A stretch of 4,707 nucleotides of DNA from a virus (Duplodnaviria > Heunggongvirae > Uroviricota > Caudoviricetes). The stretch lies in IMG/VR virus record IMGVR_UViG_2695420523_000008; one strand, given 5' to 3'. The notes below the pieces were generated by a model, which ran no database searches, had not been told where the DNA came from, and worked only from the letters and a program-made list of their open reading frames with translations. Of this stretch, positions 61-4,707 are shown in pieces; the first letter of the stretch is position 1; the number at the start of each line of letters is the position of its first letter. The translations under genes and the position numbers were made by a program.

Positions 61-366
61 CTATTCATGCTCTTTGACCTTGCGTCGCTGGAGTTCTTCA
101 CGCGCGACGGTGACGAGTTGCCCGATCTCCTCGGCTGCTTTGATGCCGATTTGTTCGACCTTAGCCAGGGCATCCAGTGACGACACAAGGGGATTTTCTC
201 CGCTGCCTTCTGCTTGGCGGCGGGCTATTTCTCCGCGCATGGCGGTTACGATAAATCCGGCATTGCTTTCACCGTCCAGCTTAACGGATTCCATCCCTTG
301 CATAACATCTAGTGGGACTCTGACAGTTGTCAGTTGTGATTTTGCGTTTTTGTTAGCCGTTGCCAT
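61..366 (-). CDS. Putative ribbon-helix-helix (Arc/Mnt/CopG-like) transcriptional repressor, 101 aa
   Basis: ORF 61..366 on minus strand. AGGAG Shine-Dalgarno (complement of 375-379) lies 8 nt upstream of the ATG (complement of 364-366). The segment TTVRVPLDVMQGMESVKLDGESNAGFIVTAMRGEIARR fits the RHH pattern of beta-strand, helix, G-x-S-x-N turn, helix. It is transcribed divergently from the rightward operon and sits next to the palindromic operator-like sites. Family assignment is by motif pattern only. Confidence 0.6.
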   Translation of the reverse strand: MATANKNAKSQLTTVRVPLDVMQGMESVKLDGESNAGFIVTAMRGEIARRQAEGSGENPLVSSLDALAKVEQIGIKAAEEIGQLVTVAREELQRRKVKEHE

Positions 367-387
367 TTCTGAAACTCCTAATCATCG

Positions 388-465
388 GTGTGTTTCAGTA
401 TACACAAAAAAAGAAATACAAAAAGCCTTGACGTGTGTTTCATGCGCTCATAACATGAAACACAC
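388..465. promoter_or_regulatory. Operator-like sites: three copies of GTGTGTTTCA, including a perfect 12-bp inverted repeat
   Basis: GTGTGTTTCATG at 433-444 and its exact reverse complement CATGAAACACAC at 454-465, separated by a 9-bp spacer; a third copy of the half-site GTGTGTTTCA at 388-397, followed by the palindrome GTATAC at 398-403. The sites overlap the -35/-10 of the rightward promoter and the candidate -10 of the leftward promoter. Confidence 0.55.
428..456 (+). promoter_or_regulatory. Sigma70-like promoter for the rightward operon
   Basis: TTGACG at 428-433 (5/6 match to TTGACA), a 17-bp spacer, then TAACAT at 451-456 (4/6 match to TATAAT, with the conserved T1, A2 and T6 present). 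About 100 nt upstream of the first rightward start codon. Predicted from consensus only. Confidence 0.45.
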
Positions 466-493
466 CGAAAGGATTGTTGAAATACAAAGAGCA

Positions 494-527
494 ACGCCCC
501 GCAGTGCTGGGAACACATACGGGGCGT
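494..527 (+). other. Stem-loop in the leader of the rightward operon (8-bp GC-rich stem, 18-nt loop)
   Basis: ACGCCCCG at 494-501 pairs with CGGGGCGT at 520-527. No U-tract follows, so it is not a canonical intrinsic terminator. It lies between the predicted promoter and the first SD/ATG at 546-559. Confidence 0.3.
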
Positions 528-556
528 CTAACCAACAACGTAAACTAGGAGCCGTT

Positions 557-754
557 ATGGTTGCTGTAAATCATATACCACACCTTGTACACACACAAAC
601 GGCCTTTGTGTGGCGTTTTCTGGCACTGAGTGCCGGAGAATCTCAAATCATCCACGTAACCGCCTGGACGGAACGCGAAGCGCGTAGCCGTTGCCCGTCC
701 GGTTGTGTTGCTGTATTCGCTGCAAAAATCCGCCAGGGAGTGAGTCATGCTTAA
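557..754 (+). CDS. Hypothetical small protein, 65 aa (first gene of rightward operon)
   Basis: TAGGAG at 546-551, 5-nt spacer, ATG at 557. This is the in-frame 3' part of the long open frame 2..754, whose 5' part overlaps the better-supported minus-strand gene. Stop TAA at 752-754 overlaps the next start by 8 nt. A resemblance to Icd-like small proteins of P4-type elements is only a vague recollection and is unverified. Confidence 0.4.
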   Translation: MVAVNHIPHLVHTQTAFVWRFLALSAGESQIIHVTAWTEREARSRCPSGCVAVFAAKIRQGVSHA

Positions 755-932
755 AACCTTCCGTGTATTTGCCCGAGCTGTTAACCCAATAGGCCACACA
801 ATTGGTATCGCTCAGAATGTGAAGGCTGTTAATGTTCAGACGGCTATTGCTGCGGTGAGAAGCGAATCATCAGAATATGGCTTATCACAAGTCATTATTT
901 CAGCAGTGTATGAATTAAAAGAGGTGCATTAA
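747..932 (+). CDS. Hypothetical small protein, 61 aa
   Basis: ORF track 747..932. GGGAG at 736-740 precedes ATG 747 by 6 nt. Its stop TAA at 930-932 overlaps the next ATG at 932 (TAATG), indicating translational coupling. Confidence 0.5.
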   Translation: MLKTFRVFARAVNPIGHTIGIAQNVKAVNVQTAIAAVRSESSEYGLSQVIISAVYELKEVH

Positions 933-1362: not shown

Positions 1363-1662
1363 ATGGAAATGAAAAATTCTGGCTTTATTGCCAGCGGCCC
1401 CGCTCGACCTGAATTTATGAACGACGATATTTACCGCGATAAATACGGCGGCACGGTAACGATTAAAGGCGTGGCAGAACGGCGCATCACTTACCGCCGT
1501 GAGGGGTATAGCTATGACTGCGTGATGCCTGTTTATCAGTTCCGGCGTGATTTTTCCCTGGTATATGCCGCACCCCGCAGTAAGCCCATCAGCAGGGAAA
1601 AAGCGTGGGGAAATATCCAGAAAATGAAAACCATGATTAACGGATTCAGAGGTAAAAAATGA
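1363..1662 (+). CDS. Hypothetical protein, 99 aa, translationally coupled to the replication gene
   Basis: ORF track 1363..1662. AGGA at 1350-1353 about 9 nt upstream of ATG 1363. Its stop TGA at 1660-1662 overlaps ATG 1659 of the next gene (ATGA). The antisense ORF 1342..1692 is rejected in its favour. Confidence 0.55.
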   Translation: MEMKNSGFIASGPARPEFMNDDIYRDKYGGTVTIKGVAERRITYRREGYSYDCVMPVYQFRRDFSLVYAAPRSKPISREKAWGNIQKMKTMINGFRGKK

Positions 1663-3413
1663 AACTGGCACCGAACGTAAAACAGCAGTCACGCGGCATA
1701 AAACACAAAGGAACAGAAGTCATTATTTTTGCGGGTAGTGATGCCTGGGCACACGCGAAACAATGGCAGGAACATGATGCGCGTATGGCCGGAGATAATG
1801 AGCCTCCTGTGTGGCTTGGGGAGCAGCAGCTATCCGAACTGGATAATCTGCAAATTGTGCCGGAAGGCCGAAAATCAGCACGCATATACAGGGCCGGATA
1901 TCTTGCGCCTGTAATGATAAAGGCGATTGGTCAGAAGCTGGCGGCAGCAGGCGTACAGGATGCAAATTTTTATCCTGAGGGTATGCACGGCCAGGAGGTG
2001 CAGAACTGGCGCGAATATCTGGCCCGTGAACGCCAGAATCTTTCTGATGGTCTGGTCATTGAGCTTCCGGTAAAGCAAAAGGCGCAACTTTCGCAGATGG
2101 CGGACAGTGAGCGCGTGCAGTTGCTTGCCGATCGCTTTGATGGCGTTTGCGTACATCCTGAAAGTGAAATCGTTCACGTATGGCGCGGCGGGGTATGGTG
2201 TCCGGTCAGCACAATGGAACTTAGCCGCGAAATGGTGGCGATCTATTCAGAGCACAGGGCCACTTTCAGCAAGCGCGTAATCAATAACGCCGTGGAAGCG
2301 TTAAAAGTTATTGCCGAACCAATGGGCGAGCCGTCTGGCGATTTGCTGCCGTTCGCCAATGGTGCGCTTGACCTGAAAACGGGGGAATTTTCCCCGCACA
2401 CGCCGGAGAACTGGATCACCACGCACAACGGCATTGAGTACACGCCACCAGCACCAGGGGAGAACATCCGCGATAACGCGCCAAACTTTCATAAATGGCT
2501 TGAGCACGCAGCCGGAAAAGACCCGCGCAAGATGATGCGTATATGTGCCGCGCTGTACATGATTATGGCGAACCGGTACGACTGGCAGATGTTTATTGAG
2601 GCCACCGGAGACGGCGGGAGCGGTAAAAGTACATTCACACACATAGCCAGCCTTCTGGCAGGGAAACAGAACACGGTAAGCGCTGAAATGACATCGCTTG
2701 ATGATGCTGGTGGACGTGCGCAGGTTGTCGGGAGTCGTCTTATCGTCCTGGCTGACCAGCCGAAATATACAGGCGAAGGAACGGGCATCAAGAAAATCAC
2801 AGGCGGCGACCCCGTGGAAATTAACCCGAAATATGAAAAGCGTTTCACGGCGGTAATCAGGGCGGTGGTGCTGGCGACCAACAACAACCCGATGATATTC
2901 ACCGAACGGGCCGGAGGTGTGGCACGTCGTCGCGTGATTTTCCGTTTCGACAATATCGTCAGTGAGGCCGAAAAAGACAGGGAGCTACCGGAAAAGATTG
3001 CGGCTGAAATCCCCGTTATTATCCGCCGATTGCTGGCGAACTTTACCGACCCTGAGAAGGCACGGGCTTTACTACTGGAACAGCGTGACGGTGATGAAGC
3101 ACTGGCAATAAAGCAACAGACGGATCCGGTTATTGAGTTTTGCCAGTTCCTGAATTTTCTAGAGGAAGCGCGCGGCCTGATGATGGGTGGCGGTGGTGAT
3201 TCAGTGAAGTACACGACCAGGAACAGCCTTTACCGCGTCTATCTGGCGTTTATGGCATACGCGGGCAGGAGCAAACCGCTAAACGTGGCTGAGTTCAGCA
3301 AGGCCATGAAGCCAGCGGCGAAAGTTTACGGGCATGAATATATTACGCGAAAAGTTAAGGGAGTAACGCAGACCAACGCAATTACAACAGACGATTGCGA
3401 CGCGTTTTTATAA
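1659..3413 (+). CDS. Replication initiator with SF3-helicase core (P4 alpha C-terminal / D5-like family), 584 aa
   Basis: Long ORF 1659..3413. Walker A GDGGSGKST at residues 317-325 (nt 2607-2633); Walker B-like LIVLAD at residues 361-366; motif C VVLATNNN at residues 403-410. The roughly 40-residue spacing A to B to C is typical of SF3 helicases. AGAGGT SD lies about 6 nt upstream of the ATG. The N-terminal ~300 aa has no motif I can confidently assign to a primase class. Confidence 0.88.
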   Translation: MKLAPNVKQQSRGIKHKGTEVIIFAGSDAWAHAKQWQEHDARMAGDNEPPVWLGEQQLSELDNLQIVPEGRKSARIYRAGYLAPVMIKAIGQKLAAAGVQDANFYPEGMHGQEVQNWREYLARERQNLSDGLVIELPVKQKAQLSQMADSERVQLLADRFDGVCVHPESEIVHVWRGGVWCPVSTMELSREMVAIYSEHRATFSKRVINNAVEALKVIAEPMGEPSGDLLPFANGALDLKTGEFSPHTPENWITTHNGIEYTPPAPGENIRDNAPNFHKWLEHAAGKDPRKMMRICAALYMIMANRYDWQMFIEATGDGGSGKSTFTHIASLLAGKQNTVSAEMTSLDDAGGRAQVVGSRLIVLADQPKYTGEGTGIKKITGGDPVEINPKYEKRFTAVIRAVVLATNNNPMIFTERAGGVARRRVIFRFDNIVSEAEKDRELPEKIAAEIPVIIRRLLANFTDPEKARALLLEQRDGDEALAIKQQTDPVIEFCQFLNFLEEARGLMMGGGGDSVKYTTRNSLYRVYLAFMAYAGRSKPLNVAEFSKAMKPAAKVYGHEYITRKVKGVTQTNAITTDDCDAFL

Positions 3414-3426
3414 TTTTTTGTAAAAG

Positions 3427-3650
3427 CCATCTACCCCATCTACCTGAACGAAATAAACGCATATTATTCAACATGATAAGTGGGTATAGGGCTAGGTAGA
3501 AGGCTAATAAAAGCTCTCTACCTCTTCTACCTGATTTTATCAGTTTCAGGTAGCAGGGTAGACGGCAGGTAGAGGAGTCAAAAAAGCTATCTACCCGCTG
3601 AAAGCCGCGCCATTACTGACATGATGAGCATTCGGGTAGATGGGTAGAGG
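3427..3650. repeat. Iteron array; candidate origin of replication for the element
   Basis: GGTAG on the top strand at 3495, 3549, 3557, 3568, 3635 and 3643, and CTACC at 3431, 3440, 3518, 3527 and 3591: 11 copies in about 220 bp, where about 0.4 would be expected by chance for one 5-mer on either strand. A perfect tandem 9-mer CCATCTACC x2 at 3427-3444 is mirrored by the inverted pair GGGTAGATGGGTAGAGG at 3634-3650. AT-rich stretches at 3446-3490 and 3504-3513 lie between repeat clusters. Located directly 3' of the helicase gene. Confidence 0.6.
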
Positions 3651-3698: not shown

Positions 3699-4013
3699 AT
3701 GCGCATACATAAAAATCACTTAACAAACATGCCAGCCGAAAACATGAATCAGGGGCGACAAATGACCAAAATTCGCAGAGACAGAACACAGGCAAAATAT
3801 AAAGCGTTAGACATGACAGAGCTTTCCTTAAAGGTGGCAATCAAAGCGATAGACCACCACACACGGGCAGGATACGCGAAGGAACATCCCGACCTGATAA
3901 GCGCATTCATGACCACAGCAGCGGCAAACTTTGCCACGCTGACAGAACGGGAGATTGCCGAAGCGGAACAGGTGACAACCATCAATGTTAAAACCGGAGA
4001 GCAGACAGCATGA
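3699..4013 (+). CDS. Hypothetical protein, 104 aa (alternative starts possible at 3729, 3744 or 3762)
   Basis: ORF track 3699..4013. A G7 tract at 3683-3689 sits 9-16 nt upstream of ATG 3699 as a possible SD; the internal ATG at 3762 has its own AGGGG SD. Its stop TGA at 4011-4013 overlaps ATG 4010 of the SSB-like gene (ATGA). No recognisable motif. Confidence 0.5.
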   Translation: MRIHKNHLTNMPAENMNQGRQMTKIRRDRTQAKYKALDMTELSLKVAIKAIDHHTRAGYAKEHPDLISAFMTTAAANFATLTEREIAEAEQVTTINVKTGEQTA

Positions 4014-4432
4014 CAGCACAGATAGCGGCTTACGGGCGGCTGGTGGCTGACCCGCAGTTAAAGACCACCAGCAAAGGGACACAAATGGCGATGGCGAGTA
4101 TGGCGGTTCCCCTGCCGTGCAGCCAGGCAGATGACGGAACGGCGACGATGTGGTTATACGTCCTGGCGTTTGGCAGACAGGCCGACGCACTGGCAAAACA
4201 CCACAAAGGCGAACTGGTGAGCGTGGCGGGTAACATGCAGGTAAGCCAGTGGACAGGCCAGAACGGCGAAACGCGGCGGGGCTGGCAGGTTATCGCAGAC
4301 AGCGTAATCAGTGCGCGAACGGCGCGACCGGGCGGCAAAAAAGGCCAGCAGGGGCAGGCCACTGACGCACTGAACAGGGCAAAACAACAGTCGGGGAATG
4401 ATGATCCGTACGGCGATAATATACCGTTTTAA
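4010..4432 (+). CDS. ssb: Single-stranded DNA-binding protein (SSB) paralogue, 140 aa, with host-like C-terminal tip
   Basis: The N-terminal ~110 aa aligns by eye with the OB-fold core of E. coli SSB: GRLVADPQL against GNLGQDPEV, and WLYVLAFGRQADALAKHHKGELVSVAGNMQVSQWTGQNGETRRGWQVIADSV against [52 protein letters not shown]. A short Gly/Gln-rich linker follows, and the C-terminus DDPYGDNIPF matches the acidic D-I-P-F tip of bacterial SSB. Confidence 0.8.
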   Translation: MTAQIAAYGRLVADPQLKTTSKGTQMAMASMAVPLPCSQADDGTATMWLYVLAFGRQADALAKHHKGELVSVAGNMQVSQWTGQNGETRRGWQVIADSVISARTARPGGKKGQQGQATDALNRAKQQSGNDDPYGDNIPF

Positions 4433-4592: not shown

Positions 4593-4707
4593 GGTAATGA
4601 CTCCAACTTATTGATAGTGTTTTATGTTCAGATAATGCCCGATGACTTTGTCATGCAGCTCCACCGATTTTGAGAACGACAGCGACTTCCGTCCCAGCCG
4701 TGCCAGG
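4593..4707 (-). mobile_element. IS1 insertion sequence, terminal 115 bp including the right inverted repeat; continues beyond the window
   Basis: GGTAATGACTCCAACTTATTGATAGTG from 4593 matches the IS1 terminal inverted repeat as I recall it, and the following sequence through 4707 matches the IS1 insB-proximal end. Recognised from memory of the IS1 sequence, not searched. Confidence 0.88.
4608..4707 (-). CDS. insB: IS1 transposase InsB, 3' end (partial; start lies outside the window)
   Basis: Minus-strand translation of 4706..4608 gives [32 protein letters not shown] followed by a stop (TAA, complement of 4608-4610), 15 nt inside the IS1 end. Absent from the ORF track because no start codon lies within the window. 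Confidence 0.8.

Follow-up and report, generated by a model that had tools for sequence, protein, structure and literature searches.

The initiator helicase of a Gram-negative phage-inducible chromosomal island bears a small module with a predicted Toprim-like fold, and no recognisable catalytic residues, at the primase position

We analyzed a 4,707-base stretch of DNA (hereafter the window; IMG/VR record IMGVR_UViG_2695420523_000008), which constitutes the replication module of a small element integrated in Escherichia coli. Its replication gene, pri-rep (1659..3413, plus strand), encodes a protein of 584 amino acids, Pri-Rep, which the open reading frame (ORF) call and 98% identity to the EcCICFT073 protein identify as the replication initiator and helicase of a satellite of the Gram-negative phage-inducible chromosomal island (PICI) type. 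Pri-Rep, its replication origin and its part in replication have been described before. The new point is that Pri-Rep is an initiator helicase of the P4 alpha/D5 family whose primase is replaced by a small, pseudo-enzyme-like module that is common to several helicase families. We consider it rather likely that this N-terminal module (N-module), which may derive from a Toprim domain, is non-catalytic and that the host does the priming for the alpha-type initiator helicase to which the module is tethered.

Judged by sequence comparison, the C-terminal three quarters of Pri-Rep are homologous to the alpha protein of the satellite P4 (gp-alpha), with residues 141-573 aligning to gp-alpha 324-756 at 40% identity (BLASTP, E = 2e-111). 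Since residues 141 onward are homologous to P4 alpha, only residues 1-130 and a linker of about 18 residues are left unexplained, not about 300 residues. A previous reading of this DNA from the sequence alone (the sequence-only reading) had assigned priming or origin melting to the whole N-terminal ~300 residues, which does not hold, as residues 141-310 represent the D5_N collar common to P4 alpha. The D5_N collar domain (residues 149-285; 2103..2513, plus strand) was matched by Pfam PF08706 at residues 154-282 (E = 2.7e-15) and aligns with P4 alpha 336-467; its conserved positions (W180, F232, N234, G235, F277 and W280) are aromatic or structural. The DRFDG segment (residues 158-162), previously suggested as a conserved acidic target for mutagenesis, is present but not conserved, reading EHYGE in P4 alpha and differing in other relatives. 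It lies inside D5_N and was rejected as a catalytic site for its lack of conservation.

The collar is followed by the SF3 (AAA+) helicase ATPase core (residues ~295-460; 2541..3038, plus strand), which was matched by DUF5906 at residues 316-417 (Pfam, E = 5e-10) and by residues 405-639 of the SaPI5 PriRep structure 7OLA (E = 4e-15), while TIGR01613 matched residues 229-495 with 109 bits against a cutoff of 108.7. The SF3 motifs comprise the Walker A sequence GDGGSGKST (317-325), LIVLADQP (361-368), VLATNNN (404-410) and RRR (423-425), in agreement with the earlier placing of the helicase motifs at about residues 317-410. The C-terminal winged-helix domain (residues 487-576; 3117..3386, plus strand) is predicted to bind the origin, with matches to Pox_D5 at 487-575 (Pfam) and, at 488-576, to 1KA8 (E = 8e-6), the solved origin-binding domain of P4 alpha. 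Ten iterons lie immediately downstream; the sequence-only reading had the C-terminal ~170 residues plausibly bind them, a binding that we likewise predict. Pri-Rep therefore combines D5_N and an SF3 ATPase having Walker A and B, motif C and an arginine finger, as found in the P4 alpha/D5-family initiator helicases, with a C-terminal winged-helix domain that adjoins candidate cognate iterons. The fused active primase domain of the family archetype is lacking, and this is where Pri-Rep departs from it.

Searches of Pri-Rep residues 1-310 with Toprim, zinc-ribbon, AEP and Prim-Pol profiles (Pfam, NCBIfam and PDB sequences) yielded no match. Therefore, the missing primase signature noticed in the sequence-only reading is real and not a limit of reading by eye. 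A standard primase domain matched with confidence and with its catalytic residues intact, named there as the result that would speak against it, was looked for and not found. No zinc-binding domain (CHC2 or Zn_Ribbon_Prim) was matched in Pfam or NCBIfam, while the same scan recovered the Zn_Ribbon_Prim of P4 alpha with E = 1.9e-18; a zinc ribbon is excluded because the first cysteine of Pri-Rep is residue 164. An AEP/Prim-Pol core (DxD, sxH and h- motifs on an RRM-like fold) was not found either, with no profile match even at E ≤ 1 to 10, and the modeled fold of the module is a parallel alpha/beta sheet as opposed to the RRM-like fold of AEP.

The N-module itself (residues 1-130; 1659..2048, plus strand) is a family-specific alpha/beta domain with a predicted Toprim-like fold and without catalytic residues. 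Its conservation was assessed in an alignment of 36 diverse members with 20-65% identity to the query. Only A4, G26, A29 and L58 were invariant, and P5, P50, G80 and A95 nearly so. Polar positions were conserved by residue type at E20, at an acidic residue near 115 and at R123 and R125 only, with E20 being E or D in 35 of the 36 members and located at the N-terminal start of strand 1, and with both arginines in the final helix; the other conserved positions are hydrophobic or small. In Toprim enzymes, strand 1 closes at its C-terminal end with a glutamate that immediately precedes a glycine (EGxxD), and a DxD follows strand 3. The strand 1 motif of the module, h-h-h-x-G-x-x-A, resembles the Toprim motif h-h-h-E-G-x-x-D. 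The invariant G26 is preceded by A25 in the query and by A, V or I across the 36 members, so that the catalytic glutamate is missing. Likewise, no DxD was found: strand 3 (73-78) runs into A79-G80-Y81, where no acidic residue is conserved across the family. In size the module corresponds to a Toprim subdomain alone, whereas the primase part of P4 alpha has about 210 more residues upstream of its Toprim, including the zinc ribbon. Mapped onto the modeled fold, these features combine to what we read as the signature of a non-enzymatic domain.

An AlphaFold2 model of the N-module, built from a 31-sequence alignment, had a mean predicted local distance difference test (pLDDT) of 88.9 and a predicted template modeling score (pTM) of 0.83. 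In the model, four strands (20-25, 51-53, 73-78 and 101-105) alternate with four helices (29-44, 55-59, 84-96 and 118-129). Another model, which covered residues 1-320 and used a different and more diverse alignment, showed identical elements, with low confidence for the linker at 130-148 and a pTM of 0.48, indicating that the two domains have no fixed mutual orientation. The flexible linker (residues 131-148; 2049..2102, plus strand) showed pLDDT values of 55-68 that fell below 50 at residues 137-142.

In a ranking of 48,164 chains, the closest solved folds were DnaG-type Toprim domains, and animal Twinkle was among the top matches. Foldseek against viral models (BFVD) returned an uncharacterized stand-alone phage protein of 112 aa at the top (A0A6J5LID1, E = 6e-4), followed by a "DnaG primase, TOPRIM domain" and a "putative DNA primase" with E about 0.013. 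Foldseek against the PDB gave no significant match; the most probable one, at 0.75, was Aquifex DnaG in second place, and B. subtilis DnaG came sixth. The three rankings, each weak alone, agree on DnaG-type Toprim as the nearest neighbor. Based on these models, we predict a Toprim-like fold for the N-module, and it may be derived from a Toprim domain, an ancestry that is not proven. Sequence searches with the module (Pfam and NCBIfam; PDB by phmmer and family profile) gave no Toprim and no match at all, and WD40 matches of the family profile were dismissed as a repeat artifact in which many sub-threshold stretches are summed. Aligning the 36-member family alignment to the P4 alpha Toprim with hhalign, using the single sequence and then a 70-sequence alignment from genome loci, gave a probability of ~0.1%, and therefore sequence homology of the module to Toprim is not demonstrable. 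The sequence-only reading had left open a divergent primase or a non-catalytic domain. Given the missing catalytic residues we favor the latter, and the former has support as fold ancestry only, given that DnaG-type Toprim domains are the nearest solved folds, and not as an activity.

Among 1.84 billion representative proteins, an exhaustive search by profile identified only 128 clusters with the N-module, which was always located at the extreme N-terminus. In full-length members it was followed by one of four ATPase architectures (D5_N-DUF5906-Pox_D5, DUF927, the RepA-like AAA_25, and VapE), and none of these proteins contained a Pfam primase domain. In E. coli, modules that are 60-70% identical are found on non-homologous helicases, with the switch just after residue ~135, within the linker region. 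The family is distributed among Enterobacterales (named members from Escherichia, Shigella, Klebsiella, Yersinia and Serratia) and Pasteurellaceae (Mannheimia, Pasteurella, Aggregatibacter, Glaesserella, Avibacterium and others), two related bacterial groups from which Gram-negative PICIs had also been described. A query for related loci with one Glaesserella homolog returned none. In PHROGs, the module matches the first part of phrog_2850, a family without known function. A match to phrog_1139, "DNA primase", was discarded as a bridge, being weak and seen in only one of the 36 members, and a word-indexed protein search with the full-length query returned near-identical copies only. A homolog with 42% identity, annotated as hypothetical, was also observed in a 106-kb Klebsiella phage record (PQ569648.1, 98639-99031). 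In some E. coli genomes the N-module is fused straight to a single-stranded DNA-binding protein (SSB) or to PerC (P0032, P0035 with 233 aa, P0048 with 199 aa, P0093, P0100 and P0112); these fusions have apparently arisen by deletion, with loss of both helicase and origin.

We propose that Pri-Rep would bind the TCTACC iterons of its origin, assemble as a hexameric helicase ring and open the AT-rich spacers. The module would be a pseudo-enzyme, probably a Toprim relic, and Pri-Rep itself would make no primers; these would be supplied by a host enzyme, most simply DnaG. Recruitment of host DnaG, as already suggested in the sequence-only reading, is a plausible hypothesis. More speculatively, the N-module, the satellite SSB with its IPF tail, or both might link this foreign helicase with single-stranded DNA or with replication proteins of the host, and they are the candidates for bringing DnaG to a helicase other than DnaB. 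It was shown that pri-rep of EcCICFT073 and its downstream region maintain a thermosensitive plasmid in E. coli DH5alpha, for which the gene and the origin are both needed, and that deletion of pri-rep cuts transfer of the island about 100-fold (Fillol-Salom et al. 2018, PMC6092414). As the plasmid is maintained without a helper phage, host factors and this one protein are enough. The presence of the module on four unrelated helicase types and its occurrence in two related bacterial groups fit a helicase-independent, host-directed role. In a stronger form of this idea, the module would be a portable dead-Toprim adaptor that captures DnaG or another host replisome protein, a "primase-recruitment cassette" shuffled among satellites and serving SF3, DUF927, VapE and RepA-type helicases alike, which we regard as possible but doubtful.

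Several points weigh against a non-catalytic module. P4 alpha needs its own primase, and P4 alpha mutants defective in the primase do not replicate. P4 replication is not known to depend on host DnaG; if this holds, an alpha-type helicase is not coupled to DnaG by default, and the replacement module is therefore the obvious place to look for such a coupling. Moreover, E20, the acidic residue near 115, R123 and R125 could form an unrecognized active or binding site, and the catalytic positions were mapped from motif and strand positions and not by coordinate superposition. The N-module could then be a real, highly divergent minimal primase that uses these unconventional residues, making Pri-Rep a true primase-helicase like P4 alpha. 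It sits exactly at the primase position of P4 alpha and other helicase fusions, its closest folds are Toprim domains of primases, and the sufficiency of pri-rep and ori for plasmid replication (PMC6092414) would be accounted for as well. We nevertheless judge a primase activity very improbable: none of the polar residues is invariant among the 36 members, E20 is found across the sheet from where the active sites of Toprim and Rossmann-like domains form, a Glu before G26, a DxD and a zinc site are all lacking, and 130 residues compare with about 320 in the primase part of P4 alpha, with its zinc ribbon at 30-66 and some 140 more residues ahead of its Toprim.

The likeness to DnaG might also be convergent or an artifact of ranking, with the N-module being an unrelated Rossmann-like or flavodoxin-like domain for regulation, oligomerization or partner binding, for example in sensing signals of the helper phage or the host. 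We retain this explanation as a tentative one, since no link to any Toprim family is seen at the sequence level, generic alpha/beta folds (PTS IIA, receiver domains, dehydrogenases) score nearly as well, and the best BFVD match is uncharacterized. It has to contend with DnaG-type domains being at or near the top of three independent rankings although they make up an estimated, not counted, tiny fraction of the chains, with a module located at the end of the alpha Toprim, some 10-25 residues short of the D5_N region that both proteins share, and with the resemblance of the strand 1 motifs. Finally, priming could proceed without the module and without recruitment of DnaG, the leading strand starting from an RNA polymerase transcript or a PriA-dependent primosome assembled on the opened origin, while the module serves the helicase in handling single-stranded DNA or loading the ring. 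The primase-like domain of animal Twinkle is inactive yet contributes to single-stranded DNA binding and helicase activity, and Twinkle is among the top fold matches of the module. Further, the module is flexibly tethered, and the downstream SSB with its IPF tail could alone attract host primosome proteins. There is no direct counter-evidence, but transfer among four mechanistically different ATPase families better fits a helicase-independent role, and we consider this explanation unlikely.

The origin of replication (3430..3648, no strand assigned) lies downstream of pri-rep and was recognized by repeat count, with 10 TCTACC/GGTAGA iterons in both orientations around AT-rich spacers. Ten iterons compare with 0.98 expected, and none of 200 shuffles reached 10. 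The iterons are kept in the ori region of EcCICFT073 (ori alignment), and the GC content is 0.43 in the origin versus ~0.53 in pri-rep. Further downstream, a satellite SSB of 140 aa is encoded (4010..4432, plus strand; Pfam SSB, E = 1.7e-15; TIGR00621), and an SSB is found downstream in 69 of 85 related loci. Its C-terminus, ...NDDPYGDNIPF, ends in a ...DNIPF tip that resembles the acidic IPF tip of E. coli SSB. The tail of E. coli SSB docks many host replication and repair proteins, including DnaG. The tail of the satellite SSB is a possible route for recruiting host primosome components.

A small DUF4222 ORF (1363..1662, plus strand; Pfam DUF4222, E = 4.9e-23) precedes pri-rep, and its stop codon overlaps the pri-rep start by 4 nt (ATGA). 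Among related loci, all of them fairly close relatives with modules 70-100% identical, DUF4222 was directly upstream in 83 of the 84 with upstream sequence, and the 4-nt overlap was kept in 80 of these 83. The helicase classes represented were SF3/D5 (72), DUF927 (11) and AAA_25 (1). The DUF4222 ORF was also located at L077 5705-6004, at L078 5690-6004 and in L081-L160. It was not found upstream in Pasteurellaceae islands or in the induced element vB_KppS-Ant, where the ORFs are unrelated (DUF7040-like or of no family). DUF4222 was therefore rejected as an obligate partner of the module as a general rule, and the linkage is a clade feature, most simply a shared left flank. A local functional link of DUF4222 with the replication gene is possible in enterobacterial islands. 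One protein (P0070) is an apparent fusion of DUF4222 and the N-module, presumably through a frameshift.

At least 80% of the window length was matched in 55 complete E. coli genomes. An intact copy of the island (L001) encodes an integrase, a helix-turn-helix (HTH) regulator, a BRO-N protein and a leftward YlcI/YnfO gene, and then a rightward operon of an Icd-like gene, three small ORFs, DUF4222, a "DNA primase family protein", a small ORF, SSB, major capsid, head decoration, HTH and TerS. This gene order is the organization of a Gram-negative PICI, and the gene content of L001 includes no other primase-sized gene. The window closes with the terminal part of an IS1 element (last 115 bases, 4593-4707), which matches the IS1 copies of phages P1, SfIV and RCS47 at 100% identity; in this copy of the island, IS1 follows the SSB gene, at the place of the major capsid gene in intact islands. 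A sigma-70-like promoter (TTGACG-17-TAACAT; 428-456, plus strand), followed by hairpins at 488-612, was observed between the divergent YlcI gene and the Icd-like ORF. The same interval is the site of an immunity RNA in P4-like and some Gram-negative PICI elements. A P4-like immunity RNA (C4/IsrK) was sought at window 300-800, where no Rfam family matched even at E ≤ 1. Two plasmid records, NZ_CP148328.1 (10,790 bp) and NZ_CP069874.1 (15,995 bp), are small and non-mobilizable, and in each a replication gene with the N-module was found, accompanied by DUF4222 in one record and of the DUF927 type in the other. Both may be excised PICIs captured as episomes, which would be compatible with autonomous replication.

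Pri-Rep is annotated as a DNA primase in genomes and is called a primase or a primase homolog in the literature. Such proteins have been grouped as "Primase" from matches to Pox_D5, D5_N, DUF927, Prim-Pol or zinc-ribbon domains (PMC10111431), and tools for finding satellites use this "DNA primase" or "Pri" protein as a marker, a name that is misleading if the protein cannot prime. No report of an EcCICFT073-type protein without a primase domain, or of a dissection of the N-module or N-terminus, was found in the searchable literature, a result that does not cover subscription journals and is not conclusive. If our interpretation is true, the start of DNA synthesis in Gram-negative PICIs becomes an open and directly testable question, as a pri-ori plasmid assay exists for a protein that is 98% identical. 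The module would also be a compact example of a pseudo-enzyme domain that moved between unrelated helicases within a narrow host range, a pattern that is usually a sign of a host-specific interaction. In practical terms the impact is modest; a known replicon is refined and no new type of system is revealed.

Among known systems, Pri-Rep of EcCICFT073 is effectively the same protein, the 98% identity extending over all 584 residues. Both share the gene order (Icd-like, small ORFs, DUF4222, Pri-Rep, ori, small ORF, SSB) and the TCTACC iterons, and there is no difference of substance. The identity, the position in a unidirectional int-alpA...pri-ori island and the iterons 3' of the gene place our protein with the EcCICFT073-type Pri-Rep of Gram-negative PICIs. 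P4 gp-alpha (777 aa), also from a satellite of enterobacterial phages, has been described as combining a DnaG-type primase, an SF3 helicase of the D5 family and, at the C-terminus, a winged-helix domain that binds the origin (Kazlauskas et al. 2016, PMC4889955), and it shares with Pri-Rep the D5_N, SF3 ATPase and winged-helix domains and an iteron origin nearby. In contrast, residues 1-323 of alpha, its DnaG-type primase, comprise a zinc ribbon (Zn_Ribbon_Prim, 30-66), an RNA-polymerase subdomain and a Toprim (Toprim_3, 210-299) that has the Glu of EGYATA, and Pri-Rep has the 130-residue module in their place; the Pri-Rep iterons are TCTACC, with P4-like repeats not found in a repeat scan of the origin, and the origin lies directly 3' of the gene. 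SaPI5 PriRep (7OLA) and poxvirus D5 are likewise self-loading initiator helicases of a satellite and a virus with a D5_N collar and an SF3 core, but they carry an N-terminal AEP-type primase of their own, whereas Pri-Rep has neither an AEP nor an active Toprim. Compared with Twinkle and the DnaG-type Toprim domains of E. coli, Aquifex and B. subtilis DnaG and T7 gp4, the module shows no detectable sequence similarity, is far smaller than the full DnaG catalytic core, and is joined to SF3, DUF927, VapE and AAA_25 ATPases and not only to DnaB-type helicases.

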